62,419 bases of DNA from an uncultured Burkholderiaceae bacterium (GCA_964597235.1 CAZQXQ010000001.1:1-62419), one strand, 5' to 3'; numbered from the stretch's first letter, positions 15,341-38,416 are shown. Made by a program: numbers and translations. The notes: generated by a model from the letters alone, not told the origin.

Positions 15341-16507
15341 ATGAAGATTGCTGTCGTTGGAACAGGCTATGTCGGCCTGTCAATCGCTGTCCTGCTTGCA
15401 CAACGTCATCAAGTAGTTGCGTTGGACATTTCTGAAGAAAAGGTTGACCAAATCAACCGTCGCCAATCCCCGATTGAAGACACCGATATTGAACGGTTTC
15501 TCACGGACCGGGCACTTGACCTTCGCGCCACGCTGAACCAACGCGAAGCTTTTGAAGGCGCGGAGTTTGTCGTCGTAGCCACCCCCACGGATTACGACAC
15601 TGCCACTAACTACTTCAACACCTCCAGTGTGGAAGCAGTAGTGCAACATGCCGTGGACTTGGCGCCGAAAGCCACCATCGTTATCAAGTCCACCGTACCG
15701 GTTGGCTTTACAGCTCGATTGCAGGCCCAGTACCCCCACAGCGAAGTCCTCTTCTCGCCGGAGTTTTTGCGCGAAGGCAAGGCGCTGCACGACAACCTGT
15801 ATCCCTCGCGCATCGTGGTGGGTGCCCGTACTGAGAAGGCGCGACTTTTTGCCAGCTTGCTGGAAGAAGGGGCTGAAAAAGCGGACGTCCCAGTTCTCTT
15901 GACCGACAGCACAGAAGCGGAAGCCATCAAACTTTTTGCCAATACCTACTTGGCCATGCGCGTGGCGTATTTCAATGAGTTGGATACCTATGCAGCCACC
16001 CACGGTCTTGATACCCGGCAAATTATTGAAGGCGTAGGCCTCGATCCACGGATTGGCAGCCACTACAACAACCCCAGTTTTGGCTATGGCGGTTACTGCT
16101 TACCTAAAGACACCAAGCAGCTTTTGGCCAATTACCAAGATGTACCGCAGACGTTGATTAGCGCCATCGTCACTGCCAACACTACCCGTAAGGACTTCAT
16201 TGCGAACGACATCCTGCGCCGCAAGCCACAGACTGTGGGTATTTATCGCCTGGTAATGAAGGCTGGCAGTGATAACTTCCGAGCCAGTAGCGTACAGGGT
16301 GTTATGAAGCGACTTAAAGCTAAAGGTATTAATGTAGTACTTTATGAGCCAACACTTCATGACGATAATTTTTTTGGCTCAAAAAATGTTAGAAAAATTG
16401 AAGAATTTCAATCTATTTCAGACATCATAATCGCCAACAGAAAATCGCAGGAATTAAATGATGTTTCGCATAAAGTATATACAAGAGACATCTTTGGCAT
16501 AGACTGA
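15341..16507 (+). CDS. ugd: UDP-glucose 6-dehydrogenase
   Basis: 388 aa. [14 protein letters not shown] Rossmann motif, catalytic region [10 protein letters not shown], length typical of Ugd. The last ~200 nt switch to AT-rich composition. Confidence 0.95.
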
Positions 16508-16529
16508 ACTTGTAACGAGTTATAACCCC

Positions 16530-17756
16530 ATGCTTTCAAAATCCAGGAAGGATTCTTTAAAGGTAACTATCGGACAGGCGCTGTGGGCGGTATCACAGGC
16601 CCTAATGATAATTATAATATCGAAAAAACTGAGTATTGAATTGGTGGGCTACCTAATTCTTGGTCTTGGAATTTATGCCCCACTATGTCTTGCCGGTGGA
16701 TTAAATCTCAGAACACTAATCGCAATTGATGTTAAGCATGAATTAAATCTGAGAGATGCTTTTCGATTGAGAGCGGCTGCTGCCACTTTTTCTTTTGCGA
16801 TAGTAGCAACTATTTTCTGGCTACTAACCGACAGCAGTTTAGACTTGGTAATACTTCTATGCCTCACAGGCACAAGAATAGCTGATCAGATTTGTGATAT
16901 CGCGGCGGGGCATTACCAGCGCATTAATAATCACTCCAAAATTGGCATCTCTTTTGGTTTTAGAGGGGTATTTACACTTTTGCCGTTTATCGGGCTATTG
17001 CTATTTGACTGGCATGTGGTAATTGCATCGGCGCTTTCTTTTTTTGGCGTCTTAATTATTACTATAATTTTAGATGTTATGCCCAACCTGAGAAATCTTG
17101 GCCAATCTAAAAAATTGGATTCTGGGATCGTTGATTTATTTAAAAAATTTGGAAAATCTAACTGGTCTGCCCCTTTCCCATTTTTGGATAGCTTGCACGC
17201 TAACAGCCTCCGATATGCAATTTATATTTTTTTGACTTCGGAAATCCTCGGCAGCATTGGAGTCGCTCAAACTTTCTATGCGCCAGTGCAACTTTTAATA
17301 AGTTCAATTGGTTACATTTATCTAAGCAAATCTCATTTAATTTTATCCAGAGGTAGCATTTCTGAGATGCGCGGGCACATCCTCACTGGCTTCATTTATG
17401 GCGTTTTTCCAGTTATTGGATTTGCCACAATCTCTGCTGTAATGCCCAATTTTCTGATTGGGGCAGCATTCCCAAATACATATCTCGATCCGAAATATGC
17501 CCTCCTTTTGATTGCTTTGGCAATGTCGCCTTTAGGAATCGTAGGGTTTACATCGCAGATATTAGTTGTGTCCAAGAAAAATAAATCTTACTCAATAAGC
17601 CCGTTGATCGGGCTAATAGTTTTCTGGGTGCCGCAACTACTTATCTACTTCAGTGGAAATGATTTGAATTTAGTTGGTGTAATATTAATATTTTTTTTTA
17701 GCGGCCTCGCTCGGCTCGCTTTTAACAGTGCAATCCTTATGAAATTTATTAAATAA
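16530..17756 (+). CDS. polysaccharide flippase (Wzx-like, MOP superfamily) candidate
   Basis: 408-aa polytopic membrane protein (about 10-12 hydrophobic segments) in AT-rich DNA, first gene of the variable cassette. Assignment is by topology and context only. Confidence 0.6.
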
Positions 17757-17760
17757 TCCT

Positions 17761-18321
17761 ATGAGCTACAAAGGTGGAAAAATATTATTTATACCGCGTG
17801 CTGTTAAAAAAATTGTAAAAATAACTATTGGCGCTATTAACACTGTGCTTTATAGCATTGCATGCCAAAAAGTTGGGCGCGGCACCAAATTTCAGCATGA
17901 CATATGGATAGCAGACCCGTCTAGTGTTCTCATTGGCGATCAATGTTTCTTCTCAAGAGGCACTTCTTTTTCAACCGAAATTGCCGGAAAGCAATTATTA
18001 ATCGGGAATAATGTCCAGATTAATGCAAATGCATTAATTGACTACACAGGCGGCCTGTCCATAGCTGACAATTCAATGATTTCTGAAGGCTGCATAATAT
18101 ATACACATGATCATGGCTTAGACCCAAGATCATCACCCAAACCTCTTTCAAAATCAATTGGCTGCAATGTGTGGCTTGGTGCAAGATGTATTATCATGCC
18201 TGGATGCAGAAATATCGGTGACGGGGCTATTATTGGTGCTGGCTCAATCGTGACACGAGATGTAGCATCAAACACAATAGTGGCCGGCAATCCCGCTGTA
18301 GAAATAAGAAAATTAAAATAA
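17761..18321 (+). CDS. hexapeptide-repeat (LbH) O-acetyltransferase
   Basis: 186 aa with left-handed beta-helix repeats ([58 protein letters not shown]), as in WbbJ/maltose-acetyltransferase-like enzymes. Confidence 0.85.
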
Positions 18322-18327
18322 ATATTC

Positions 18328-19626
18328 ATGTTATTTTTCGCAACAATATTTCTTTGTCTTTCGCATCTGGTGCCATGGTTATTTTTTAAAAAAACTAAAA
18401 TTGAGCGATCACCAGCGAAGATAATATCGCTTATAAGTGGGGTTACGACGGTCCCCTATTTTTTTATACTTGCATTTTTCCCGGGTTACGAGAGTCCCAT
18501 ATTAAATTTAATAAATGGCGATTTGGGTGAATTGCAAATTATTTTTGCTATTTACTACTCCCTTGGTCTTCTTGCAATGTATTGGGGTATAAAAATTGGC
18601 GGCATTAAATTTAATAATGGAATTGTCTATAAATTACAAAGATATTCGGATGTGAGTAGTAAAAGAATTCACTTAATTTTATTCTTCATGGCTATATCCC
18701 TAATTTTGGCAAAATTACAGCTTGCGGGCGGGCTGTTTTTTTTGTTAGAAAATATTAGATCCCGAGGGGAACTTTTGGCCGGTACTGGATTTATTGATTT
18801 ATTTTTAATACCAGCTGCTTTTTTTTCAATATTCTATGCAATATATAATAGGTCAATGACTGGCAAGCCGAAGGCAATTGAAATAATTATTATGATAATT
18901 ATTTTGTCAGTCTTGCTTTCTCTTTTTGGAGGGAGGAAGCTACCGATGATGCTAATAATATTAGCAATATTGGCGGCAATTTTCTACGATGAGAAACTAA
19001 AAATATACTCAATTCGCTTTTTGCCTGTCTATATTTTGATTATTTTCTTCTTTGCGACCGCCCTCGAGCATCGTATTAACGAGCAGCTGGGTGTTGGAGC
19101 TCAAGGGTTAAATTTTTATGACTACATAAGAAATGCTAGCTATCTTGAGACATATTTATTTATATTAGATCATTTTAGTGTTAATGATTTTTGGTATGGT
19201 GTAGGTCATTTGGATTTGGTTTATAGAATTATTCCATTTTTTTCAGAGTCCCTAAAGCCGCCCATTGACGATGGGGTTTACATCAGAACACTTGCTGAGG
19301 GTATTTTTGTGAAGCCACCCGTGAGTTTCGAAGACATGTATCCAAGTTCGTGGCCGCCAGAAACATTTGGTTCTGGATACATGAATTTTGGACTTATTGG
19401 GGTAATCTTATATTTTCTCCTAAAGGGATTTATTTCGGGGTTGGTCTTTTCGTATGCAAAAAGCAAAAAATTTCAGCCAATTCCACTTTTCCTATTTTTT
19501 TATGTGGTAATTAACTTCCATGTTTCAAATTTAAGAGTCTTTCAGGTAGGAATGTTGGTTGTTTTTTTGATCGCAATAAAATATGTGTCATCCTTGAAAA
19601 ATATTGCTGCAATATTAAATAGGTAG
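18328..19626 (+). CDS. O-antigen/EPS repeat-unit polymerase (Wzy-like) candidate
   Basis: 432-aa very hydrophobic polytopic protein with a larger loop (residues ~300-345), AT-rich, between acetyltransferase and GT genes. Context-based call. Confidence 0.55.
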   Translation: MLFFATIFLCLSHLVPWLFFKKTKIERSPAKIISLISGVTTVPYFFILAFFPGYESPILNLINGDLGELQIIFAIYYSLGLLAMYWGIKIGGIKFNNGIVYKLQRYSDVSSKRIHLILFFMAISLILAKLQLAGGLFFLLENIRSRGELLAGTGFIDLFLIPAAFFSIFYAIYNRSMTGKPKAIEIIIMIIILSVLLSLFGGRKLPMMLIILAILAAIFYDEKLKIYSIRFLPVYILIIFFFATALEHRINEQLGVGAQGLNFYDYIRNASYLETYLFILDHFSVNDFWYGVGHLDLVYRIIPFFSESLKPPIDDGVYIRTLAEGIFVKPPVSFEDMYPSSWPPETFGSGYMNFGLIGVILYFLLKGFISGLVFSYAKSKKFQPIPLFLFFYVVINFHVSNLRVFQVGMLVVFLIAIKYVSSLKNIAAILNR

Positions 19627-19747
19627 GTTGGAACAGCTGGTGTGGTGAATTTTGAACCACATCTTTCATAATTAACAGCTTGCAGTCTTCATATATAAAA
19701 ATTACGTGCGCTATTATTTATCATTTAAAAGCTGAACTACCTTGCTT

Positions 19748-20905
19748 ATGAAAAAAATATTGCTTTTTACTGGATTTTATCTACCCGGCTATAAAGGTGG
19801 CGGCCCTATTCGAACAATTGCTAATATGGTTGATCAACTAGGCGATCAATTAAGTTTCGAAATTTATACTGCAGATCGTGATTTGGGTGATTTAAAACCT
19901 TATGCAGGCGTACAAATAAACGCATGGCAGCGCGTAGGCAAGGCAGATGTTTTTTATGCATCGTCTGATCGAGGTTGGGTTTTTAGATTGTGGAAAAATA
20001 TCGCTAAATTTGAAGGCCAGGCAATCTATCTAAATAGCTTTTTTTCCACTCGGTCCAGTATTGTCCCACTGATTTTTTGGCGTATTTTGAAATCGGATTC
20101 GGTAGTTGTTTTGGCGCCGCGTGGTGAATTTTCTGAAGGTGCGCTGAATTTTAAAAGCAAAAAAAAGCAAGTATTTATTTCAATTGCTAATATTTTTGGA
20201 TTATATAAAAAAATCATATGGCAAGCCTCCTCTGATTTTGAGGAGAAGGATATTCGGCGCGTGATGGGTGATAATGTAAAAATCCATGTGGCTGTAAATA
20301 TTTCCAACCCCAAGATGGAAATTGAAATCAAAGAAAGATTGCCTGGATTGCCGCTGCGGATTGTTTTTGTTTCTCGTATTTCCCCCAAGAAAAATCTTTT
20401 GTATGCAATCGAGATATTGAATAAAATCAAAATACAAGTCCTTTTTGATGTCTATGGGCCTGCAGAAGATGAGAATTATTGGACTCAATGTCAGGAAGCT
20501 GCCAAATTGCTTCACAAAAATATACGTTTCCAGTATTGCGGGGCGCTGCACCCTGTGCAGATCACGGAGAAGTTGTCCGAATATGACTTGTTCTTTTTTC
20601 CCACGCTGGGCGAAAACTTTGGCCATGTGATTGCAGAAGCCCTGTCGTCGGGCTTGCCCGTGCTGATCAGCGATGCCACGCCTTGGCGTGATTTAGCGGA
20701 GAAATCCCTGGGGTGGGATATTCCGCTCAATCAAGTGGACCGATTTGTTGAATGCATTGAAGCCTGTGCAGCCAAATCGCCAGAGGAATACATGCAGTGG
20801 CGCCAATCGATTCGGGCTTGGGCGCTCAAGAATGTGGGCAACCAAGAAGCCATTGAACAAAACCGTCGTCTTTTTATGAATTTGGAGTCATCCAGTGAGC
20901 ATTGA
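19748..20905 (+). CDS. glycosyltransferase family 4 (GT-B)
   Basis: ATG at 19748 (MKKILLF...). C-terminal EX7E region FFFPTLGENFGHVIAEALSSGLPVLISD. Composition changes from AT-rich to GC-rich around 20.53-20.64 kb, inside the gene. Confidence 0.85.
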   Translation: MKKILLFTGFYLPGYKGGGPIRTIANMVDQLGDQLSFEIYTADRDLGDLKPYAGVQINAWQRVGKADVFYASSDRGWVFRLWKNIAKFEGQAIYLNSFFSTRSSIVPLIFWRILKSDSVVVLAPRGEFSEGALNFKSKKKQVFISIANIFGLYKKIIWQASSDFEEKDIRRVMGDNVKIHVAVNISNPKMEIEIKERLPGLPLRIVFVSRISPKKNLLYAIEILNKIKIQVLFDVYGPAEDENYWTQCQEAAKLLHKNIRFQYCGALHPVQITEKLSEYDLFFFPTLGENFGHVIAEALSSGLPVLISDATPWRDLAEKSLGWDIPLNQVDRFVECIEACAAKSPEEYMQWRQSIRAWALKNVGNQEAIEQNRRLFMNLESSSEH

Positions 20906-21947
20906 TTTTTCGAATAAAACACTGTTGATTACCGGTGGCACCGGTTCGTTTGGCAATGCAGTCCTCAAACGCTTTCTCAGTTCCGACATCGCTGAAATCC
21001 GCATTTACAGCCGCGACGAAAAAAAGCAGGACGACATGCGCAAGCGCTACAGCAGCGCCAAGCTCAAGTTCTACATTGGTGACGTGCGCGATGCGCGCAG
21101 CATTGAGCAGGCCATGCGCGGTGTGGACTATGTGTTCCACGCGGCGGCGCTCAAGCAGGTGCCTTCGTGCGAGTTCCACCCCATGCAGGCGGTGCGCACC
21201 AATGTCCTGGGGACCGAGAACGTGCTGGAGGCTGCGATTCAGGCGGGCGTCAAGCGCGTGGTGTGCCTTAGCACCGACAAGGCGGTCTACCCCATCAACG
21301 CCATGGGCATCAGCAAGGCCATGATGGAAAAAGTGATGGTGGCCGCCAGCCGCAACCTGGAAGGCACGGGCACGGTGATTTGCGGCACTCGCTACGGTAA
21401 CGTGATGGCCTCGCGCGGCTCGGTGATTCCGCTGTTTGTCGAGCAGGCCTTTGCCGGCAAGCACCTGACCATGACCGACCCCACCATGACCCGTTTCATG
21501 ATGACCCTGGCCGATGCGGTGGACCTGGTGTTGTACGCCTTTGAGCACGGCAACAACGGCGACATCTTTGTGCAAAAAGCCCCCGCCGCTACGGTGCTGA
21601 CGCTGGCCAAGGCCCTGCTGGACTTGATGGGTAAGCCCGACCACCCCCTGCACATCATGGGCACCCGCCATGGCGAAAAGCTGTACGAGGCGCTGCTCAG
21701 CCGCGAAGAAATGGCCTGCGCCGAAGACATGGGCGACTATTACCGCGTGCCCCCGGATGGCCGCGACCTGAATTACGCCAAGTTTGTGGACCAAGGCGAG
21801 CAGCGCCTGACCCAAACCACGCATGGCGAGGACTACAACAGCCACAACACCACCCGCCTGGACGTGGAAGGCATGAAAAAGCTGCTACTCAAGCTGGATT
21901 TCATGCAGCAAATTGCCCGTGGCGAATACGCCGTAGCCGAGGAGTAA
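20895..21947 (+). CDS. fnlA: UDP-N-acetylglucosamine 4,6-dehydratase/5-epimerase (FnlA/CapE/WbjB)
   Basis: 350 aa. KTLLITGGTGSFGNAVLKRFL, IRIYSRDEKKQDDMRKRY, KFYIGDVRD, STDKAVYPINAMGISKAMMEK: the FnlA/CapE signature. Confidence 0.9.
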   Translation: MSIDFSNKTLLITGGTGSFGNAVLKRFLSSDIAEIRIYSRDEKKQDDMRKRYSSAKLKFYIGDVRDARSIEQAMRGVDYVFHAAALKQVPSCEFHPMQAVRTNVLGTENVLEAAIQAGVKRVVCLSTDKAVYPINAMGISKAMMEKVMVAASRNLEGTGTVICGTRYGNVMASRGSVIPLFVEQAFAGKHLTMTDPTMTRFMMTLADAVDLVLYAFEHGNNGDIFVQKAPAATVLTLAKALLDLMGKPDHPLHIMGTRHGEKLYEALLSREEMACAEDMGDYYRVPPDGRDLNYAKFVDQGEQRLTQTTHGEDYNSHNTTRLDVEGMKKLLLKLDFMQQIARGEYAVAEE

Positions 21948-26202: not shown

Positions 26203-26639
26203 TGTCACGAAAGCCAACCATGCAGGAAACCATTAACTCCCACTTACCTGACGAGATTCGCGACCCACTGCGGGAGGTGCTGGCGCGCTTTCCGGAGATC
26301 GGCTTGGCGGTGTTGTTTGGCTCGGTGGCGGCAGGTACCGCGCGGGCCGACAGTGACCTTGACTTGGCGGTTGCCGGGCCCAGGCCTTTGACCGTGCCCG
26401 AAAAAATCGCATTGATTCAAGCCCTCGCTGAAAAAACGGGCCGACCGATTGACTTGATTGACCTGCATACCGTGGCAGAACCCTTGCTGGGGCAAATCGT
26501 GCGGCATGGTCAGCGCGTGCAAGGGAGCAGCGCAGCGTTTGCGTACTGGGTCAATCGGCACCTGATTGAGCAAGCAGACTTTATGCCCTACAGGAACCGG
26601 ATACTTGCAGAAAGGCGGTTGGCATGGATCGGGAAGTAA
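26202..26639 (+). CDS. nucleotidyltransferase-domain antitoxin (MntA-like), pair 2
   Basis: Last 146 codons of ORF 25665..26639. ATG 26202 shares one nt with the transferase TGA. NTase motif FGSVAAGTARADSDLDLAV. A 16-nt overlap with the downstream HepT gene. Confidence 0.85.
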   Translation: MSRKPTMQETINSHLPDEIRDPLREVLARFPEIGLAVLFGSVAAGTARADSDLDLAVAGPRPLTVPEKIALIQALAEKTGRPIDLIDLHTVAEPLLGQIVRHGQRVQGSSAAFAYWVNRHLIEQADFMPYRNRILAERRLAWIGK

Positions 26640-27061
26640 TAGACCAAAAGCTGGAGTCTCTGCGCCGTTGTTTGCAACGCATCCAAAGCAAATGCCCAGA
26701 GCAGGCAGAACAACTGGTGGCGGATTTCGACCTGCAAGACATTGTTGCGCTCAATTTGAGTCGGGCAGTGCAGCTTTCGGTGGACATTGGAGCGCACCTC
26801 ATTGCCCAGTTGGAGGTGCCGCCGCCTGGCACGATGGGGCAGACTTTTGAGTTGCTCGCTGAACAAGGCGTTTTGGACGGGGAGTTGGCCCAAAAGCTCA
26901 AAAAGGCCGTCGGTTTCCGCAACATCGCCGTGCATAACTACGAAGCCATCAATTGGCATGTGGTGCACAGCATTGCGCACCTGCACCTGAATGATTTTTC
27001 TGACTTTGCTCGGGCCGTGCTCGATTGGGTTGGAAAGTCAAGGAGGACCAGCAAACCATGA
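26624..27061 (+). CDS. HepT-like (DUF86, HEPN) toxin, pair 2
   Basis: 145 aa. Rx4HxY motif RNIAVHNY. TGA overlaps the ATG of the next gene (ATGA). Confidence 0.88.
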   Translation: MDREVIDQKLESLRRCLQRIQSKCPEQAEQLVADFDLQDIVALNLSRAVQLSVDIGAHLIAQLEVPPPGTMGQTFELLAEQGVLDGELAQKLKKAVGFRNIAVHNYEAINWHVVHSIAHLHLNDFSDFARAVLDWVGKSRRTSKP

Positions 27062-29386: not shown

Positions 29387-29438
29387 GGGGGAAAACCGGG
29401 GTCAGCCCGGGACATGCACCGAAAGGAGCGAACCATTG

Positions 29439-29623
29439 ATGACCAAGCCAACGAAGGCAGCATTGAAGGCCCTCCCGAAGTTCGACAGCGAAGCAGCCGA
29501 ACAGGCATATCGGGAGTCGCACGATTCCACCTCGATCCCATCAATTCCGCCGCCAATTCGCGCGATGTCCCTTATCAGTCGCTAATCAAAGTTTGGTTGC
29601 AAGAAAAGGTGCACAACCATTGA
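29439..29623 (+). pseudogene. BrnA-type (CopG-like) antitoxin relic with internal deletion/frameshift
   Basis: Frame 0 reads MTKPTKAALKALPKFDSEAAEQAYRESHDST. Another frame reads ...RFHLDPINSAANSRDVPYQSLIKVWLQEKV. The N- and C-terminal BrnA signatures are joined out of frame over the same nucleotides (~29515-29540). No BrnT partner is present. Confidence 0.6.
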
Positions 29624-29716
29624 GGACGCTATTTTTATGGTCCAAACTGGGGCTGGGTCAATGAATACCCCAACGACCCCGTCGTCCCTTTATCAACCCT
29701 TTCAACGGAGCGTGCA

Positions 29717-29935
29717 ATGAACACCATTACTTTGGAGCCCGGCAAGCGGGGCGGCAGGCCCTGTATCCGCGGGCTGAGAATTTCGGTGTACGACGTGCTG
29801 TCCATGCTGTCCAGCGGCATGTCGCAGCAAGAGGTGCTCGATGACTTTCCCGAATTGACCCGGGAAGACATCCTGGCTGTGTTGGCCTATGCAGCAGACC
29901 GCGAGCACCAGGTCTATTCGCTCAAAGTGCAATGA
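29717..29935 (+). CDS. DUF433-domain protein (antitoxin-like HTH)
   Basis: 72 aa. LEPGKRGGRPCIRGLRISVYDVLSMLSSGMSQQEVLDDFPELTREDILAVLAYA is the DUF433 signature. The stop overlaps the ATG (ATGA) of a 22-codon stub at 29932-30000, where a DUF5615/PIN-like partner would normally lie. Confidence 0.8.
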   Translation: MNTITLEPGKRGGRPCIRGLRISVYDVLSMLSSGMSQQEVLDDFPELTREDILAVLAYAADREHQVYSLKVQ

Positions 29936-30042
29936 GCAAGGAGGCCATCGTGGATGCCCTGGAAGTGCGTGGCATGGCCTCCGTGGGGTTGATTGCATAG
30001 GACTTGGCAAAAAGATGAAACGCATTTTTGTCAAAACCGGGG

Positions 30043-30083
30043 TTAGGCCAATGAATACGGGCGGCAATAGCTATCTTAATGAG
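30043..30083. repeat. short interspersed repeat, copy B
   Basis: ttaggccaatgaatacgggcggcaatagctatcttaatgag. Compare taggccaatcaataccagcggt at 34052 and agctatc...t(t)gat tails at 25520 and 41166. Confidence 0.4.
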
Positions 30084-30129
30084 AGCGTTTGCACGGATTC
30101 AGACACCTGCAAGACACGGAGACTTGGGT

Positions 30130-30468
30130 ATGAAACACATCGACCGTGAGACGGAAGAAGCCGTTCGGCAGTTCCTGGCCTTGACTGGCAGCCGCTATGA
30201 CATCGCAGGCGCCATCGTGTACGGCAGCCGTGCCCGTGGCACCCACCGCCCGGACAGCGACGCCGATGTCGCCGTGCTGTTGCGTGGAGAGCACCAGCGC
30301 TTTCTGACGGTCAAGCTGGACATGGCAGACATCGCATTCGACGTGCTGCTGGACACGGGCATCCTGATTTCGCCCCTCCCCATCTGGCTGGACGAATGGG
30401 AGCACCCGGAGCACTACTGCAATCCAGCCCTGCTGCGCAACATCGAGCGGGAAGGGGTTCGGCTATGA
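30130..30468 (+). CDS. nucleotidyltransferase-domain protein (antitoxin-like), pair 3
   Basis: ATG 30130 (MKHIDRETEE...). NTase motif YGSRARGTHRPDSDADVAVLL. ATGA overlap with the HEPN gene. Confidence 0.85.
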   Translation: MKHIDRETEEAVRQFLALTGSRYDIAGAIVYGSRARGTHRPDSDADVAVLLRGEHQRFLTVKLDMADIAFDVLLDTGILISPLPIWLDEWEHPEHYCNPALLRNIEREGVRL

Positions 30469-30875
30469 TGCCTGCCCAGCCGCTGACGCCCGCGACCCTG
30501 ATGGCAAAGGCAGATACCGCAAGTTCTTCTGCACGCGCACTGCTGATGCTAGGTGACGTGGATGGTGCAGCCAATCGGGCTTACTACGCCATGTTCGATG
30601 CCGCCCGCGCGGCGTTGTTGGCGTCAAATGCCTCAGTGCCGCCAGAGATTGCCCGCACGCACAGCGGCCTGATTGGCGCTTTTGGCCTGCACCTTATCAA
30701 GCCAGGCGTGATTCCAAGAGACCTGGGACGTCTTCTGAACCAGGCCTACGAAATCCGACAAACAGCTGACTACAGCGGTGAAGCAGTCGAACTGGAAGAC
30801 GCCAAGGCGATCGTGGAGAAGGCAGAGGTTTTCTTAGCGGCCATTCGCACTACGTTCATGCCACCCCAGGCGTGA
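30465..30875 (+). CDS. HEPN-domain protein (UPF0332-like), pair 3
   Basis: ATG 30465. AANRAYYAMFDAARAALL...THSGLIGAFGLHLIK...LLNQAYEIRQTADYSG matches the helical HEPN pattern. The R-x4 motif ends in Tyr (RQTADY), not His. Confidence 0.8.
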   Translation: MMPAQPLTPATLMAKADTASSSARALLMLGDVDGAANRAYYAMFDAARAALLASNASVPPEIARTHSGLIGAFGLHLIKPGVIPRDLGRLLNQAYEIRQTADYSGEAVELEDAKAIVEKAEVFLAAIRTTFMPPQA

Positions 30876-30932
30876 AAATGAGAACGAAATGAACAAAGTC
30901 GTGAAAGTTCAGACGCTGGATGGCGGATTTTG

Positions 30933-32498
30933 ATGACCCGCAAAAAGCTCCCTATCGGCATCCAGACCTTCGCCAAGATGCGCGAGGGCGGTGCCCCGTA
31001 CTACTACGTCGATAAGACGCCGCTGGCGCTGCAGCTGATTGAAGAGGGCACGCATTACTTTTTGTCGCGCCCGCGCCGTTTTGGCAAAAGCCTGTTTCTG
31101 GACACGCTCAAGGAATTGTTCGAGGGCAATGCCGCCCTGTTCAAGGGGCTGTACGCCGAGCACCACTGGGACTGGTCGGTCCAGTTTCCGGTGCTGCGCA
31201 TCAGTTTTGGTGGCGGTGTGCTGGGCTCGGTGGAAGACCTGCAGGCCAGCCTCAACGAACAACTGGGCACGCTGGAAGCCCGGTTTGGCCTTCCCGCCGA
31301 ATACCCCGATGCCCGCAGCCGCTTTAAGCGCTTGATCCTGCGGTTGGCAGAGCAAACCGGCCAACGCGTAGTGGTGCTGGTGGACGAGTACGACAAGCCC
31401 ATCCTCGACCGCATCGAAGACCGCGACAAAGCCCTGGCCATTCGCGAGGTACTCAAGGACTTCTACGCCGTCATCAAGGACAGCGACGCCCATGTCCGCT
31501 TCGCCTTTTTGACCGGCGTTTCCAAGTTCAGCAAAGTCAGCCTGTTTTCGGGCCTGAACAACCTCAAGGACATCACCATCGATGCGCGCTACAGCGCCAT
31601 CTGCGGCTACACCGATATCGATGTCGATACCGTCTTCGCCCCAGAGCTGCCGGGACTGAACCGCCAGGAAATCCGCCGCTGGTACAACGGCTACCACTGG
31701 ACGGGCGAGAGCGTTTACAACCCGTTTGATTTGCTGCTGCTGTTCGACACCCGCCGGTTCCGCCCCTATTGGTTTGAGACCGGCACGCCCACCTTCCTGA
31801 TCAAACTGCTGGTGCAGCGCCAGCAGTTCACGCCCGACCTGGAACACCTGGTCGCCCCCGAAACGCTGGTCTCCACCTTTGACGTGGACGACATCCCCAC
31901 CGTGGCGCTGATGTTCCAGGCGGGTTATTTGACGATTGGCAAGGTCCGCTACCTGCCGGGGCGCATGGAAATGCAGCTGCGCTACCCGAACCTCGAAGTC
32001 AAGGCCAGCCTCAACGACAGCCTGCTGGGCGCGCTGTGTGGCGGCGCTGCCGTGCCTGCAGGGCAGATCAGCCGGCTCTACGACCTGCTACAGGCGCACG
32101 ACGTAGCTGGCATGCAAGCCCTGTTCCATGCCTTCTTTGCCAGCATTCCCAACGACTGGTACCGCAACAGCCCTATCGCCCAATACGAAGGCTACTGGGC
32201 CAGCGTCTTCTACAGCCACTTTGCCGCGCTGGGCCTGGACATCGTGCTCGAAGACGTGACCAACAAAGGCCGCATCGACATGGCCGTGCGCTTTGAAGGC
32301 CATACCTATTTGTTCGAATTCAAGGTCGTTGAGCTGGTGCCCGCAGGCAAGGCCCTGCAGCAACTCAAGGACCGGCGTTACGCCGACAAGTACCGCGCCC
32401 CCGGCGCTGGCCCCATCCACCTGATCGGCGTGGAGTTCAGCAAAGACCAGCGCAACCTCGTGGCGTTTGAGACAGAGACTTTGGAGTCTGCGCAATGA
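30933..32498 (+). CDS. predicted P-loop ATPase fused to PD-(D/E)XK nuclease (AAA-ATPase_like + PDDEXK_9/DUF1703 architecture), copy 1
   Basis: 521 aa from ATG 30933. Walker A-like SRPRRFGKS, Walker B VVVLVDEYDKP, C-terminal nuclease core GRIDMAV...YLFEFKV (D...ExK). Stop overlaps the copy 2 ATG (ATGA). Confidence 0.85.
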   Translation: MTRKKLPIGIQTFAKMREGGAPYYYVDKTPLALQLIEEGTHYFLSRPRRFGKSLFLDTLKELFEGNAALFKGLYAEHHWDWSVQFPVLRISFGGGVLGSVEDLQASLNEQLGTLEARFGLPAEYPDARSRFKRLILRLAEQTGQRVVVLVDEYDKPILDRIEDRDKALAIREVLKDFYAVIKDSDAHVRFAFLTGVSKFSKVSLFSGLNNLKDITIDARYSAICGYTDIDVDTVFAPELPGLNRQEIRRWYNGYHWTGESVYNPFDLLLLFDTRRFRPYWFETGTPTFLIKLLVQRQQFTPDLEHLVAPETLVSTFDVDDIPTVALMFQAGYLTIGKVRYLPGRMEMQLRYPNLEVKASLNDSLLGALCGGAAVPAGQISRLYDLLQAHDVAGMQALFHAFFASIPNDWYRNSPIAQYEGYWASVFYSHFAALGLDIVLEDVTNKGRIDMAVRFEGHTYLFEFKVVELVPAGKALQQLKDRRYADKYRAPGAGPIHLIGVEFSKDQRNLVAFETETLESAQ

Positions 32499-34054
32499 CC
32501 CGCAAAAAGCTCCCCATCGGCATCCAAACCCTGCGTGAAATCCGTGAGGACGGCTGCTACTACGTGGACAAGACCCCGCTGGCGCTGCAGCTGATTGCGC
32601 AAGGCAAGTATTACTTTTTGTCCCGCCCGCGCCGCTTTGGCAAAAGCCTGTTTTTGGACACGCTCAAGGAACTGTTCGAGGGCAATGCGCCGCTGTTCCA
32701 AGGCCTGTATGCCGAAACGCGCTGGAATTGGTCGGTCCAATTTCCGGTGCTGCGCTTCAGCTTTGGTGGCGGCGTCGTACGCGATGCCCAGGACCTGCAA
32801 GGCCGCATCGACTCTCACCTTCGCCGCTTTGAGGAAGCCCACGGCCTGCATGCGGTGGACGCCAGCCTGCCCGAGCGCTTTCGCACACTGATCCTGCAGC
32901 TGTCGGCAAAAGCAGGCCAGCGCGTGGTCGTGCTGGTGGACGAATACGACAAACCCATCCTGGACAACATCGAGCACCCCGAGCAGGCCCGCGCCATCCG
33001 CGATGGCCTGCGCGACCTCTACGCCGTCATCAAGGACAGCGATGCCCACATCCGCTTTGCCTTTCTGACCGGCGTCTCCAAATTCAGCAAGGTCAGCCTG
33101 TTCTCCGGCCTAAATAACCTGGAAGACATCACCCTGGTGCCCGAGTACAGTGCCATTTGCGGCTATACCGATGACGACGTGGACACGGTGTTTGCCCCCG
33201 AGCTGCCAGGTCTGGACCGCGACGAAGTCCGCCGCTGGTACAACGGCTACAACTGGACAGGCGATGCGGTCTACAACCCCTTTGATCTGCTCCTGCTGTT
33301 TCGCAAACGGGTCTTTCGCCCCTGGTGGTTCGAGACCGGAACCCCTACCTTCCTGGTCAAACTGCTCGCCCAGCGCGGCTATTTCACCCCCAACCTGGCC
33401 AAAGTCCATGCGGGCGAGCACCTGCTGTCCACCTTTGATGTGGATGGCATCGCCAACGAGGCACTGCTGTTTCAGACCGGCTACCTCACCATCCACGAGG
33501 TGCGCCAACCCATCCTAGGCCAGTGGGTGTACACCCTGGGCTACCCCAACCGCGAAGTCGAATCCAGCCTCAACGCCAGCCTTTTACCGTGGATGGGGGC
33601 AGACGAATCCGTCGCCTTCCAGCAGCGCCTGCGCCTGATCGACCTGTTGCAGGCCCACGACGTGGGCAGCATGCGCGATTTGTTCCACGCCTTCTTTGCC
33701 AGCATCCCGAATGATTGGTATCGCAACAGCCCCATCGCCCAATACGAAGGCTACTGGGCCAGCGTGTTCTACAGCCACTTTGCGGCGCTGGGCTTGGACA
33801 TCGTGCTCGAAGATGTCACCAACAAAGGCCGCATCGACATGGCTGTGCGGTTTGAGGGGCATACGTATTTGTTCGAGTTCAAGGTGGTGGAACTCGTGCC
33901 CGAAGGCAAGGCCCTGCAGCAGCTCAAGGACCGGGGCTATGCCGACAAGTACCGTGGCGCCGGCCCCGTGCACCTGATCGGCGTGGAGTTCAGTAAGGAC
34001 CAGCGCAATATCGTGGCGTTTGATGTTGAGAATTTGCATCAAAACAGCCTCTAG
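32495..34054 (+). CDS. predicted P-loop ATPase fused to PD-(D/E)XK nuclease, copy 2 (paralogue)
   Basis: 519 aa. Same motifs as copy 1. Roughly three-quarters identical to copy 1 by eye, with a 74-aa identical block around the nuclease core. Confidence 0.85.
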   Translation: MTRKKLPIGIQTLREIREDGCYYVDKTPLALQLIAQGKYYFLSRPRRFGKSLFLDTLKELFEGNAPLFQGLYAETRWNWSVQFPVLRFSFGGGVVRDAQDLQGRIDSHLRRFEEAHGLHAVDASLPERFRTLILQLSAKAGQRVVVLVDEYDKPILDNIEHPEQARAIRDGLRDLYAVIKDSDAHIRFAFLTGVSKFSKVSLFSGLNNLEDITLVPEYSAICGYTDDDVDTVFAPELPGLDRDEVRRWYNGYNWTGDAVYNPFDLLLLFRKRVFRPWWFETGTPTFLVKLLAQRGYFTPNLAKVHAGEHLLSTFDVDGIANEALLFQTGYLTIHEVRQPILGQWVYTLGYPNREVESSLNASLLPWMGADESVAFQQRLRLIDLLQAHDVGSMRDLFHAFFASIPNDWYRNSPIAQYEGYWASVFYSHFAALGLDIVLEDVTNKGRIDMAVRFEGHTYLFEFKVVELVPEGKALQQLKDRGYADKYRGAGPVHLIGVEFSKDQRNIVAFDVENLHQNSL

Positions 34055-34074
34055 GCCAATCAATACCAGCGGTA
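34041..34074. repeat. short interspersed repeat, copy C
   Basis: aaaacagcctctaggccaatcaataccagcggta. The first 33 nt match 41129-41161 at about 29 positions (hand alignment). Confidence 0.5.
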
Positions 34075-34100
34075 TGTCAGACAAGGTAATTGCTGGAACG

Positions 34101-34211
34101 ATGTTGTTTGAAGGGCATACTTACCCGTTCGAGTTCAAGGTGGTGGAGCTGTTACCTGCAGGTAAGGCCCTGCCGCAGCTCAAGGACCGGGGACGTTGTC
34201 GTGGCGTTTGG
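34101..34211 (+). pseudogene. scar of a third ATPase-nuclease copy (C-terminal ~35 codons, internally deleted)
   Basis: Reads MLFEGHTYPFEFKVVELLPAGKALPQLKDRG..VVAF, versus RFEGHTYLFEFKVVELVPAGKALQQLKDR...NLVAF in the intact copies. Confidence 0.7.
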
Positions 34212-34255
34212 CACGGGGACTTTGGAATGAAAAAGAGTGTGAGTACGAGGTTCGT

Positions 34256-36202
34256 ATGTTGAATTTTTTGGTGACCTTGCCATCGCGCATGAAGATGGCG
34301 CTGCTGATGGCACTGGATTCCGTGTTGGTGCCGTTGGCGCTCTGGGGGGCGTACTGCCTGCGCTTGGGCGAGTGGTACACCAACGCCACGATGGTGTCCT
34401 GGCTTTCATTGATCTTGGTGATCTTGTCCATCCCGGTGTTCATTTGGCAGGGGCTGTACCGCACGGTCACCCGGCACATTCGGGAGTCCGGGTTTTGGCT
34501 GATTGCCCGCGCGGCGGGATGGTCGGGCCTGGTGTTGGTGGTGGCCACGTTGCTCCATGATGACCATTGGTTCATCCCCCATTCGCTGTTTGCGATTTAC
34601 GCGATGTTGCTGTTCATCTTGCTGGTTGCCAGCCGTGTGACGGCGGCTTTGTTGCTGGGGGGCAGTACCAACAGTAAAGGCGCGCCGGTGGCAATTTACG
34701 GCGCGGGAGAGTCGGGTCAGCAACTGGCGTCCACGCTGCGCCTCGGTCAAGACTACATGCCGGTGGTGTTTCTGGACCGCCATCCCGAGCTCAAGGGGCG
34801 CACGGTGGATTCGCTGCATGTGTTGGATCCGTACCGCGACGACTTGGTCAAAGCGCTGCAGAAGTTGGGGGTGCGCGAAATCCTGCTCGCCATTCCAGGC
34901 TTGGATCGCGGACAGCGCCGCTCGATTCTGGAGCGGCTGGAGAAGTTGGCCTTCCGGGTGCGCACGGTGCCGTCGATGGAGGACATCCTGTCGGGCAAGG
35001 CGCGCCTGGATCAGCTGGAGGAAATCAGCGTGGACGATCTGCTGGGCCGGGATGCGGTGCCCGCGCTGCCGGGCCTGCTGGACCGCTGTATTCGTGGCCG
35101 GGCGGTGCTGGTGACCGGGGCGGGCGGATCGATCGGTTCGGAGCTGTGCCGGCAAGTCTTGCAACAGGGGGCATCGCGTCTGATCCTGCTGGAACATTCC
35201 GAGGTCGCGCTTTATACGATCGAGTTGGAATTGCTGAAAATGTTGCCCAACTGTGCGCCGGGCACGCTGCTGGAACCGGTGCTGGGGTCGGTTCAGGATG
35301 CCGCCTTGGTCGATCGGCTGTTCAGCGAATACGACATTGACACCGTTTATCACGCGGCCGCCTACAAGCATGTGCCGATCGTGGAGATGAATCCCTTTCA
35401 GGGCATTCGCAACAACGCCCGGGGAACGATGGTGGTGGCCGATGCGGCCTTGCGCCATGGGGCCAAACATTTCGTCTTGATTTCCACGGACAAGGCGGTG
35501 CGTCCGACCAATGTGATGGGCGCCACCAAGCGGATGGCCGAATTGGTGGTGCAAGCCATGGCGGCCGAGGGCTCGAAAACGGTGTTCAGCATGGTGCGTT
35601 TTGGCAATGTGCTGGGGTCGTCGGGGTCGGTGGTGCCCTTGTTCCGCAAGCAGATTGCCGCAGGCGGCCCGGTGACGGTCACGCACCCGGAGGTGACGCG
35701 GTATTTCATGACCATTCCAGAAGCCGTCCAACTGGTCATCCAGGCAGGCGCGATGGCCACAGGCGGCGAGGTGTTTGTGCTGGACATGGGTCAGCCGGTG
35801 CGCATCGCGGACCTGGCGGCCAAGATGATTCACCTGAGTGGTCGCCGCGTGCGTTCAGAAGCGGAGCCCGATGGCGACATTGAAATCAAGGTGACCGGCT
35901 TGCGCCCCGGAGAGAAGCTATACGAGGAGTTGCTCATCGGGGATGCTGTGGGCGGAACGCAACATCCCCGCATCATGCGGGCCAACGAGGATTTCCGTCC
36001 CTTGGCCGAGGTCCTTGCAGTGCTGGACCGGATGGAGCAGGCAGCAGCCGCCCACGATGAAGATGCACTCAAAAACCTGTTGCAGGCGTGGGTCTCGGGC
36101 TATCAGCCGTCGGCGCCTGAACCATCACTACCGGCCATTTCGCAGCACCGAGCCACTCCCATCCTTCCAGTGCTTGCGCGCGTCGGCGTATGTGTTGGTT
36201 AA
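34256..36202 (+). CDS. membrane-bound UDP-GlcNAc 4,6-dehydratase (PglF/WbpM/CapD family)
   Basis: ATG 34256 with a GAGG 6-9 nt upstream. Four N-terminal TM segments, linker Rossmann domain (VAIYGAGESG), catalytic SDR (VLVTGAGGSIGSEL, YHAAAYKHVP, STDKAVRPTNVMGATKR). Confidence 0.9.
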   Translation: MLNFLVTLPSRMKMALLMALDSVLVPLALWGAYCLRLGEWYTNATMVSWLSLILVILSIPVFIWQGLYRTVTRHIRESGFWLIARAAGWSGLVLVVATLLHDDHWFIPHSLFAIYAMLLFILLVASRVTAALLLGGSTNSKGAPVAIYGAGESGQQLASTLRLGQDYMPVVFLDRHPELKGRTVDSLHVLDPYRDDLVKALQKLGVREILLAIPGLDRGQRRSILERLEKLAFRVRTVPSMEDILSGKARLDQLEEISVDDLLGRDAVPALPGLLDRCIRGRAVLVTGAGGSIGSELCRQVLQQGASRLILLEHSEVALYTIELELLKMLPNCAPGTLLEPVLGSVQDAALVDRLFSEYDIDTVYHAAAYKHVPIVEMNPFQGIRNNARGTMVVADAALRHGAKHFVLISTDKAVRPTNVMGATKRMAELVVQAMAAEGSKTVFSMVRFGNVLGSSGSVVPLFRKQIAAGGPVTVTHPEVTRYFMTIPEAVQLVIQAGAMATGGEVFVLDMGQPVRIADLAAKMIHLSGRRVRSEAEPDGDIEIKVTGLRPGEKLYEELLIGDAVGGTQHPRIMRANEDFRPLAEVLAVLDRMEQAAAAHDEDALKNLLQAWVSGYQPSAPEPSLPAISQHRATPILPVLARVGVCVG

Positions 36203-36946: not shown

Positions 36947-38416
36947 ATGGCTACATCCTGGCTGTCTTCCAGTCGTTCCGATCCCCACGCCGAGGTACAT
37001 GACAACCTGGCATTTGCCGCGCTGCTGTTGTTGCTGGTGTGGGTGCCCATTCCCCTGGGCAGCAACCGTGTCTTGCCTGCCGCCGTGATGGTGGCGTGGT
37101 CGGTGCTTGTTCTATTGGCCGTGCTGTGGGCATGGCGGTCGCGCTTGCCTGACTTGGGCGGGCGGCTGGCGACGTTTGCCGTGCCCGCTGTTTGCCTGAT
37201 TTTGTTGATGGGCTGGGTGTGGTTGCAGACCCTGCCTTTGCCTGGTGCGCTGCTGCAATGGTGGTCGCCGGAAGCGTTTCGGGTGCAGCAGGGGGTCTCA
37301 GCGGTGCACACCATTTCATTGGATGTGAACCAGACCCGGTTGTATGCGGCGCTGACGGTGGGGTATGCCTGTGCGTTCATGGCCACGGTGGCTTGCGTCC
37401 GTGACCGGGGTCGGCTCGAAAAGTTGGTGATGGTGATGGTGCTGACCGCGCTGGTGCAGTCGGTGTTGGCCATTGTGCTGCTGGCAGTCAAGGCCCGGTA
37501 TTTCGTTTTTTACACGGAGATCCGTCACGCAACGGCAGTGGGGACCTTTGTCAATCGCAACCACTTTGCCGGTTTCCTGGAAATGGCCTTGTCGGTGGGC
37601 GTGGGGTTGATGGTGGCCCGGGTGAGCCACAAAACGCAGCGCCTGAAAACCTGGAAAGACCGGGTCGTGGCAGGCTTGCGCTTCATGCTCAGCAACAAAA
37701 TGGTGCTGCGGTTGATGCTGGTGATCATGGTGATTGCGCTCGTGCTGACACGCTCGCGCATGGGCAATACCGGGTTTTTCGCGGCGATGCTGGTGGTGGG
37801 CGGCGTGACGCTGGTGCTGACGCGGCGCTCGGCTCCGGCCATGGTGGCGCTGATCACCAGTTTGCTGGTGGTGGATGTGGTGATCGTGGGCACTTGGGTA
37901 GGCCTGGAGAAGGTGACCGAGCGGATGCAGGGCCCCCAGCTGGCCCGTGATGTGGATTTCCGCGCCGATGTGGCCTTGCATGCCCAAGACCTGGTCGCGG
38001 ACTTTTGGCTGACGGGTTCAGGGGCGGGATCGTTCTACAACACCTATTTGCGCTACCGCAGCCTGATGGAGGGGTATTTCGACCATGCCCACCATGACTA
38101 TCTGGAGCTGTGGGCGGATTTTGGGCTGATCGGTCTGTGCCTGTTCGCGGTGCTGGTGCTGTCCACCGTCTGGGTGAGCCTGGTCAATATTCGCCGGCGT
38201 CGCAGTGCCTTGCCACGGGGGATTTCGTTTGGGGTGTTGATGGCCATCGTGGCCATTGCCATTCACAGCTTTGTGGATTTCAACCTGCAGATTCCGTCCA
38301 ACGCGCTGTGGATGGTGGTCATTTTGGCGATGGGCTGGGTGTCCTATCGCCTTCCGTCGGCGGCCGGACGCTCGCGTACGGGGGATGACCAGCTGCCCGT
38401 GACTCTTCGCCCATGA
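36947..38416 (+). CDS. O-antigen ligase family (Wzy_C domain) membrane protein: WaaL-like ligase or PglL-like O-oligosaccharyltransferase
   Basis: 489 aa, about 10-12 TM segments. LTRSRMGNTGFF motif region and a periplasmic loop with DFWLTGSGAGSFYNTYLRY...HAHHDYLELWADFG, typical of the Wzy_C family. Confidence 0.8.
   Translation: MATSWLSSSRSDPHAEVHDNLAFAALLLLLVWVPIPLGSNRVLPAAVMVAWSVLVLLAVLWAWRSRLPDLGGRLATFAVPAVCLILLMGWVWLQTLPLPGALLQWWSPEAFRVQQGVSAVHTISLDVNQTRLYAALTVGYACAFMATVACVRDRGRLEKLVMVMVLTALVQSVLAIVLLAVKARYFVFYTEIRHATAVGTFVNRNHFAGFLEMALSVGVGLMVARVSHKTQRLKTWKDRVVAGLRFMLSNKMVLRLMLVIMVIALVLTRSRMGNTGFFAAMLVVGGVTLVLTRRSAPAMVALITSLLVVDVVIVGTWVGLEKVTERMQGPQLARDVDFRADVALHAQDLVADFWLTGSGAGSFYNTYLRYRSLMEGYFDHAHHDYLELWADFGLIGLCLFAVLVLSTVWVSLVNIRRRRSALPRGISFGVLMAIVAIAIHSFVDFNLQIPSNALWMVVILAMGWVSYRLPSAAGRSRTGDDQLPVTLRP

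Follow-up and report, generated by a model that had tools for sequence, protein, structure and literature searches.

We analyzed a 62,419-nucleotide stretch of DNA from an uncultured Burkholderiaceae bacterium (GCA_964597235.1, CAZQXQ010000001.1:1-62419), hereafter called the window, and focused attention on two adjacent genes, copy A and copy B, which lie head to tail on the + strand and encode proteins of the DUF1703 family. The features of the locus are listed in Table 1. Pfam model PF09820 (AAA-ATPase_like) matched residues 7-205 of both products (E = 1e-63; 215 bits for A and 214.9 bits for B), and PF08011 (PDDEXK_9) matched residues ~417-510 of both (E = 2e-20 to 3e-20; 72.5 and 70.1 bits, respectively), far above the gathering cut-offs of 26.1 and 25.5 bits, with the ATPase N-terminal and the nuclease C-terminal. 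The P-loop (GKS), Walker B (DE) and the D...ExK triad are intact in both copies, and both carry the GRIDMAV and FEFKV motifs. These results agree with a first-pass annotation made from the sequence alone, which had described two proteins of ~520 residues with one architecture and these motifs, and had named the two Pfam families. The ATGA stop/start overlap of the two reading frames was also as reported there, and it makes translational coupling of A and B likely. One codon 5' of the copy A ATG lies a TTG (position 30930); homologues do not favor a TTG start.

Table 1. Features of the DUF1703 gene pair and of its surroundings, in window coordinates
Feature	Position	Strand	Remarks
Copy A	30933..32498	+	521 aa from ATG; ORC/STAND-like P-loop ATPase (PF09820), winged-helix-like middle, PD-(D/E)XK nuclease (PF08011)
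Copy B	32495..34054	+	519 aa; architecture as copy A
A/B stop/start overlap ATGA	32495..32498	+	read from the sequence
Walker A-like SRPRRFGKS	copy A 31065..31091; copy B 32621..32647	+	
Walker B VVVLVDEYDKP	copy A 31368..31400; copy B 32924..32956	+	
Hypervariable segment 1, residues 91-140	copy A 31203..31352; copy B 32759..32908	+	two helices, beta-2 to Walker B strand (model)
Hypervariable segment 2, residues 331-395	copy A 31923..32117; copy B about 33479-33676	+	beta-hairpin of winged-helix-like region and next helices (model)
74-codon protein-identical block	copy A 32121..32342; copy B 33680..33901	+	nuclease core: E440, D449, E462-x-K464
Relic of the 3' end of a third copy, two pieces	34106..34192 and 34199..34226	+	~70-nt internal deletion; second piece A-type
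BrnA/CopG-like antitoxin stub	29414-29623	+	
DUF433 gene	29717-29935	+	
22-codon candidate remnant of DUF433 partner	29934-30002	+	MSKEAIVDALEVRGMASVGLIA and stop; overlaps DUF433 stop
MNT nucleotidyltransferase and HEPN toxin-antitoxin pair	30079-30468 and probably 30465-30875	+	directly upstream of copy A; PADLOC PDC-S09
WbpM/PglF-like polysaccharide dehydratase	34256..36202	+	downstream islet border; start from 648-aa L086 gene call
Wzy_C ligase-like gene	36947-38416	+	glycan locus

Divergence of the Two Copies and Origin of the Array

BLASTP aligned A and B with 380 identities in 519 positions (73%), close to the three-quarters first estimated. The identical block comprises exactly 74 residues, and 23 of its 222 nucleotides differ, all synonymously, where ~20 such differences had been counted by eye. 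Synonymous divergence between the copies (dS, Nei-Gojobori) was 0.88 in the block and 0.84 over the whole gene, and the ratio of nonsynonymous to synonymous divergence (dN/dS) was about 0.007 and 0.22, respectively. A dS of about 0.84 indicates that the duplication is old. Because dS in the block is as high as that of the whole gene, its identity reflects purifying selection and not recent gene conversion, the explanation already favored in the first reading. The most diverged stretch lies at residues ~91-135 of the ATPase domain (30-50% identity) and had been overlooked; residues about 330-410, at first named as the most diverged, are indeed variable (43-52%) but come second.

Each copy of the window pair is closer to a relative elsewhere than to its neighbor. 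In the four-copy array of a metagenome contig (L001), three members are 95, 93, and 90% identical to copy A and the fourth is 89% identical to copy B; the order is A-B-A-A, with a 4-nt ATGA overlap at the B-to-A junction (7885-7888), and no flanking DNA is common to L001 and the window. A related genome, L086 (GCA_037963355.1), has the same order of B, relic, and WbpM at 96.9% nucleotide identity to the window. Compared with its L001 orthologues, copy A gave dN/dS values of 0.08-0.12; copy B gave 0.22 with L001_6341 (89% identical) and 0.09 with its L086 orthologue (99% identical). Because these values stay within 0.08-0.22, both copies have been kept as working genes, each subject to purifying selection. 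Only the window clade has the B lineage, whose next best relative is at most 80% identical, and the closest named relatives are Comamonadaceae.

The relic sits between the copy B stop and the WbpM-like ATG and fills much of the 201-nt gap; it is also kept in L086. Its first piece is 85-86% identical to copies A and B alike, and its second piece matches the final codons of copy A at 86% identity. The ~110-nt relic first placed at 34101-34211 is thus real, but it is slightly larger (34106-34226) and lies in two pieces. Because its 3' end is A-like, the sequence suggests that the ancestor of the window array was A-B-A. On the L086 contig (JBALJN010000866.1), positions 1-315, directly upstream of copy B, hold an inverted copy of the nuclease-coding region (88-89% identical), which reflects either misassembly at a repeat or a true inversion in the array.

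Conserved Catalytic Residues and Variable Segments

Conservation was read from an alignment of 58 sequences in two subfamilies, which are 23-26% identical to each other. The P-loop residues R46-L54 are invariant in both subfamilies except for S53, which is kept in at least 90%; D151, E152, and Y153 of Walker B and the nuclease triad E440, D449, and E462-F-K464 are invariant in both. Given this invariance, both ATPase and nuclease activity are predicted for each of copies A and B. Among recent paralogues (46 pairs), dN/dS rose from 0.03-0.10 in the catalytic motifs to 0.40-0.47 across residues 101-140 and 0.49-0.58 across residues 361-400. The two variable segments are also the least conserved in 154 family members, with a majority-residue fraction of 0.44-0.46 in segment 1 and 0.40 in segment 2.

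Two AlphaFold2 models were examined. Model 1, built from 50 close relatives, gave the nuclease domain a predicted local distance difference test score (pLDDT) of 85-93, and model 2, built from the two-subfamily alignment, gave the ATPase core (residues ~30-200) a pLDDT of 80-95. Foldseek searches with model 2 placed Apaf-1 and archaeal ORC/Cdc6 at the top (E = 1e-4 to 1e-3, probability 0.95-0.99), followed by ORC subunits. Pfam matches below threshold pointed in the same direction (AAA_22, E = 0.064; ORC-CDC6-like, E = 0.1), and no Pfam ATPase family apart from PF09820 scored better than AAA_22. With model 1, the top matches were the nuclease domains of Wolbachia CidB/CinB (probability 0.96-0.97, E = 0.02-0.04), followed by tRNA-splicing endonuclease and HincII. 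Sequence searches of the PDB, by phmmer with copy A and with the profile of A3, returned chance matches only (LptC and vimentin).

The fold match to ORC/Cdc6 and to STAND/NLR proteins (Apaf-1) covers a P-loop base, a helical lid, and a winged-helix-like domain over residues ~30-350. The E-values of 1e-4 to 1e-3 come with low TM-scores, however, the window proteins lack sensor repeats, their nuclease is C-terminal rather than N-terminal, and nothing here points to a replication role. In classical AAA+ folds, a single helix separates beta-2 from Walker B; the initiator-specific motif (ISM) adds a further helix at that position and contacts DNA in ORC/Cdc6. Model 2 shows two helices, made of residues 100-142, in the connection from beta-2 (87-91) to the Walker B strand (146-151), as in the ORC/Cdc6 initiator clade, and gives segment 1 a pLDDT of 87-95. 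Judged by topology alone, segment 1 may occupy the ISM position of ORC/Cdc6-type ATPases. Segment 2 comes after the beta-hairpin (334-350) of the winged-helix-like region of the model.

The C-terminal domain finds its best structural match in Wolbachia CifB (CidB/CinB), whose nucleases adjoin an AAA-ATPase-like region (PMC12445526). The likeness is offset by the Foldseek E-values, by the lack of a PDB sequence match, and by several differences: the window proteins are much smaller, have neither a CifA-like partner nor a tandem double nuclease, and do not show the CifB histidine signature. Two viral matches were also seen. A Sylvanvirus sp. (giant virus) protein of the same length (513 residues) in BFVD (A0A3G5AHI5) aligned to the model over 473 columns (E = 9e-4, probability 0.99), and herpesvirus UL24 nucleases matched the C-terminal domain.

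The DUF1703 Family and Its Arrays

The DUF1703 family was described in 2007-2012 without an assigned function (PMC1913061, PMC3424549). Our profile search returned 28,549 clusters (50% identity) at E <= 1e-3 and 5,656 at E <= 1e-30, nearly all of 510-530 residues. The proposal of a novel system made in the first-pass annotation therefore does not hold. The window locus is a typical representative of a family that is known, very large, and uncharacterized. It shares with that family the end-to-end match of both Pfam models in the same order, the length of ~520 residues, the Walker A/B and E-D-ExK motifs, and multi-copy expansion; nothing essential differs. The window proteins form part of a proteobacterial (Comamonadaceae-like) clade, and the local features of the locus are the A/B pair with its ATGA coupling, the relic, and the site inside a glycan operon.

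Relatives 50-70% identical to copy A, counted at one genome per species, were found in Beta-, Gamma-, Delta-, and Alphaproteobacteria, Acidobacteriota, Latescibacterota, and Gemmatimonadota, and further in Spirochaetota, Actinomycetota, Verrucomicrobiota, and Sericytochromatia. Identity at this level over so many phyla indicates extensive horizontal transfer under strong constraint. Family genes occur in 65 of 72,556 plasmid records, among toxin-antitoxin (TA), partition, integrase, and insertion sequence (IS) genes. In a phage collection they occur in 32 unannotated metagenomic 'Bacteriophage sp.' records and in none of the named phages. Whiteflies, psyllids, and mealybugs have also acquired AAA-ATPase-like genes by repeated transfer, and the genes have expanded in these insects (PMC11800479).

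We compared 83 loci, comprising the window, 79 genome loci, and 3 contigs. A single full copy was present in 68 of them, and 15 (~18%) held 2-9 copies, always on one strand. In 10 of the 14 arrays with at least two intact copies, every within-array identity exceeded the best identity outside; the window is not among these 10. Because of this excess, most arrays are best explained by repeated local duplication. Examples are Ectothiorhodospira shaposhnikovii, with nine copies that are 84-98% identical to each other versus <=74% outside, and loci L005, L035, L043, L052, and L070. Relics or frameshifted copies adjoin intact ones in at least six loci. Gamma proteobacterium HdN1 is credited with at least five family proteins, of which a single 21.6-kb locus encodes three, and the Cardinium genome has 25 diverged, recombining paralogues (PMC6387759), an expansion with recombination of the kind seen here too.

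The largest array seen was that of E. shaposhnikovii (L031, NZ_CP178333.1, 1295-19152), whose nine same-strand copies are separated by repeated spacers of ~580 nt, each with two open reading frames (ORFs; 93 and 116 aa) that have no Pfam match. A second, longer subfamily was also noted, with 584-631 residues, 23-29% identity, the motifs IRPRRFGKSL, LIDEYDNFAN, and D...EFKY, and thousands of members; it adjoins or lies near the short form in several genomes (L010, L011, L066, L068).

Neighbors of the Family Genes

Flanks of the 83 loci were compared by all-against-all BLAST of ~1,100 proteins, with ORF calling that took account of GC content at third codon positions. This comparison revealed no conserved neighbor of the family gene, the largest cluster being generic ABC ATPases in 18 of the 83 loci, and neither a conserved methylase partner nor a conserved adjacent partner gene of the TA or CifA-CifB type. 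The strand of the neighbors was random, and the median gaps were 224 nt upstream and 150 nt downstream.

In 6 of the 83 loci (L025, L060, L068, L081, L001, and the window), the family gene has WbpM-like (Polysacc_synt_2) or other O-antigen genes in its vicinity; no family gene was found in 80 WbpM-like metagenome loci (826 kb), all of them 39-53% identical to the window WbpM. In Acidovorax sp. HDW3 (L088, CP049885.1, 6610-11111), a HipA_C toxin gene overlaps the first of a tandem family pair by 4 nt, beside recQ and within an otherwise core genome, so that a TA gene and a family pair are again found together.

A Candidate ATP-gated Nuclease in Genetic Conflict

The observed anatomy, family membership, conservation pattern, and evolutionary dynamics have a profile typical of conflict genes: a frozen catalytic core, diversifying segments, single-gene spread, and arrays that grow and decay locally. 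Our favored reading, held tentatively at a little under even chances, is that the locus consists of two anciently duplicated, intact, co-transcribed DUF1703 members and the decayed 3' end of a third, each intact member being a self-contained ATP-gated nuclease in genetic conflict. Each protein would be a module of an N-terminal ORC/Cdc6-STAND-type P-loop ATPase with a winged-helix-like region, a variable linker, and a C-terminal PD-(D/E)XK nuclease. The ATPase and winged-helix part would bind a nucleic-acid target, and ATP binding and hydrolysis would drive a switch or oligomerization that licenses the nuclease to cut. The two hypervariable segments would serve as recognition surfaces, and tandem arrays arising by repeated local duplication and loss would widen the target range. 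The functional unit would be the single protein, with an A/B hetero-oligomer possible and not required. We infer DNA as the ligand, gating by ATP, and a role in defense.

The logic proposed is that of an NTP-gated, methylase-less restriction-like enzyme that would most likely be directed at incoming DNA and would work along the lines of McrBC or of the nuclease-bearing, NLR-like Avs proteins. With these the family shares an NTPase that would gate a PD-(D/E)XK nuclease, the lack of a cognate methylase, mobility, and variable recognition parts. Unlike them, it is a single polypeptide, neither Pfam nor PADLOC gave an AAA_5, McrB, or McrC match, and PADLOC gave none of any kind even at E <= 10. 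The likeness is one of functional analogy only. PF09820 profiles do match the ATPases of known defense systems, namely Rst_TIR-NLR (supplement of PMC13092281) and RdrA (RADAR), PARIS, and Old (PMC10952713), and proteins with an ORC/Cdc6-type NTPase and a restriction endonuclease (REase) have been placed among conflict systems (PMC10853773). A restriction-like or NLR-like defense role is the function we consider most likely, and we would put it just short of an even bet.

A number of observations weigh against this interpretation. Over their whole length the structural models are only moderately confident (pLDDT 65-70), the structural matches are weak by E-value, and the ISM assignment of segment 1 is topological. 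No 20-codon window in the 46 recent paralogue pairs had a dN/dS above 1, the maximum being 0.58, and sequence conservation over phyla is unusually high for an arms-race gene. The 148 nearest neighbors belong to 143 Pfam families, mostly housekeeping (citrate synthase, SDRs, UvrA, tRNA-synthetase domains). Conflict-related families among them are few (ResIII three times, Uma2 three times, DUF4143 twice, and a TOTE primase). Genes adjacent to the family gene matched 97 PADLOC models, including Cas3 in two proteins, versus 184 matched by control genes at least 6.5 kb away, including PglX, MTase_I, Cas1, Cmr6, HEC, and RT. Five of seven close-relative neighborhoods read gene by gene were ordinary core genome; the other two were another O-antigen locus and, on a short contig, the same WbpM junction as in the window. 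A and B had no match in PADLOC-DB v2, even at E <= 10, an outcome that the first-pass annotation would have counted toward novelty, and none in NCBIfam; the supplements of the language-model defense papers have no entry for PF09820 or PF08011. The literature gives no experimentally defined function for any DUF1703 member, as that annotation had also noted.

A rough reading of the hit lists, made without a count for each locus, found a clear defense gene in ~15-20 of the 79 genome loci. Together, the adjacent and distant PADLOC counts indicate that defense genes occur in a minority of neighborhoods and are not concentrated beside the family gene. The association of the family with defense genes is thus mild and not local. 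Defense remains the most plausible reading of the locus, as first suggested, but the defense-island argument offered for it is weak: some neighbors are of the kind expected (Cas3, ResIII, Uma2, BREX PglX, the type I methyltransferase MTase_I, and the type III Cas protein Cmr6), and most are housekeeping genes.

Alternative Explanations

Among the alternatives, we give most weight to a selfish element or effector of transposon ancestry, although we think it rather doubtful. The family would then be a relative of the CR-effector-like NTPase + REase modules, persisting by spread or host addiction, with the nuclease serving as a toxin or in mobility. As far as papers that cite them describe these modules and Tribolium Medea1 (PMC11342252, PMC10853773), they have in common with the window proteins an ORC/Cdc6-clade NTPase followed by a C-terminal REase, mobility, multiple copies, and transfer between bacteria and arthropods; the window proteins differ in having no secretion or trafficking domain. 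The REase domains of CifB, the nearest structural match, have been traced to mobile CR-REase7/CR-NTPase8 elements such as Medea1 (PMC11342252), and ORC/Cdc6 NTPase + REase proteins have been described as derived from Tn7/Mu-type transposon ATPases (PMC10853773). The insertion of single family genes between housekeeping genes, the very high identity across phyla, the repeated transfer into hemipteran insects (PMC11800479), and the high copy numbers (25 in Cardinium (PMC6387759), 9 in the Ectothiorhodospira array, and at least 5 in HdN1) would all fit. A transposon or IS should leave its ends, however, and the DNA on either side of the family gene shows neither terminal inverted repeats nor ends shared across loci. 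Only five inverted matches between upstream and downstream DNA had E < 0.05, four of them in L068 and one in L031, and tandem duplication accounts for the homology seen between the flanks of different copies. There is no conserved antidote or partner gene, and the histidine three residues after the active-site glutamate, the stated CifB/CR-REase7 signature, was not seen in these sequences. The low counts in plasmids and in the phage collection also speak against selfish spread. In Desulfobotulus alkaliphilus (L068), the family gene is directly preceded by 13 tandem copies of a 44-nt repeat (1558-2131) and has a matching inverted 21-mer on its downstream side.

That A and B form an obligate hetero-oligomeric two-component defense system of diverged paralogues, as proposed in the first-pass annotation, now seems improbable. 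Their co-expression is implied by the ATGA coupling, an A type and a B type are kept side by side in the window, L086, and L001, both copies are under purifying selection, and ORC/STAND-type ATPases commonly act as oligomers. Yet 68 of the 83 loci are single-copy, the L001 array reads A-B-A-A with the coupling at its B-to-A junction, and the B lineage, with its next relative at <=80%, is limited to the window clade. In 10 of the 14 arrays with at least two intact copies, all copies are more alike among themselves than any of them is to a gene outside, which makes them recent, lineage-specific in situ duplicates and not conserved A/B pairs. Still less probable is a housekeeping or stress enzyme of DNA processing (repair, recombination, or replication restart) whose duplication here would be incidental. 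Strong purifying selection and high sequence conservation would suit such an enzyme, as would the many housekeeping neighbors, which include RecQ, UvrA-like, and NrdD proteins. What makes the role unlikely is the patchy, multi-copy, non-syntenic distribution: the family spreads by horizontal transfer, its copy number runs from 1 to 25, relics and frameshifted copies are frequent, and members are found in plasmid accessory regions among TA genes.

The favored reading of an ATP-gated nuclease has a broader form, which we regard as possible and somewhat less likely than that reading. In this form, DUF1703 would be a very widespread, uncatalogued single-gene immune module made of a minimal NLR/ORC-like ATP switch and a CifB-like nuclease. 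Its segments at the ISM position and next to the winged helix would be diversified in arrays, as in plant NLR clusters, for the recognition of different invading DNAs, and A and B would be a two-specificity array. The module would have escaped discovery because most members lie outside defense islands.

The family has ~28,500 clusters at 50% identity, repeated transfers into insects, and a nuclease whose nearest structural relatives are the CifB nucleases of cytoplasmic incompatibility. Should the ATP-gated nuclease reading prove true, current defense catalogues lack a large class of stand-alone genes for immunity or conflict, and part of the accessory genome outside defense islands would be explained. 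The window locus, as a compact, intact, and naturally diversified pair, offers a reasonable experimental entry to DUF1703 function. It does not stand out in a family where tandem paralogues and relics are frequent, and many other members would be just as suitable; it represents no categorically new system.

Genomic Setting in the Window

The + strand operon around the pair is a surface-glycan locus. Upstream it contains FnlA/B/C-like genes, a GT4 glycosyltransferase, and a Bac_transf initiating transferase (20.9-26.2 kb), followed by a NeuD/PglD-like acetyltransferase, a VanZ-like gene, and a DegT/PglE-like aminotransferase (27.0-29.4 kb). Two accessory insertions break the operon: one at ~26.2-27.06 kb (MNT-HepT), and the islet at 29.4-34.2 kb, which contains the BrnA/CopG-like stub, the DUF433 gene and its remnant, the MNT-HEPN pair, copies A and B, and the relic. 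This gene content bears out the earlier description of a TA-rich islet within a glycan locus. The 22-codon ORF (MSKEAIVDALEVRGMASVGLIA) looks like a remnant of the toxin that would partner DUF433, by which the islet appears to have decaying TA modules. No promoter-like site and no convincing terminator were found in a scan of 29.3-34.4 kb, and Rfam gave no match at E <= 1 in 26.0-34.5 kb. Because the scan found neither element, the A/B pair is probably read through from the glycan operon and transcribed with it.

A second MNT-HepT pair, at ~26230-27061, lies between the Bac_transf gene and the NeuD-like acetyltransferase, with the end of the MNT gene overlapping the start of HepT. A 34-nt direct repeat (TTTTTGTCAAAACCGGGGTTAGGCCAATGAATAC) occurs at 29635-29668 and 30025-30058 (79% identical) and, more weakly, at 34033-34066, that is, just 3' of the BrnA-like ORF, 3' of the DUF433 stub, and across the copy B stop. 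It resembles a sigma-70-type promoter (TTGTCA-17-ATGAAT) or a cassette boundary and contains GTTAGGC; an integron attC site was considered and set aside, as the repeat has no Rfam match. Elsewhere in the glycan locus, positions 16000-21000 form a low-GC island (36-44% versus about 60% elsewhere), presumably horizontally acquired genes for O-unit processing or glycosyltransferases.

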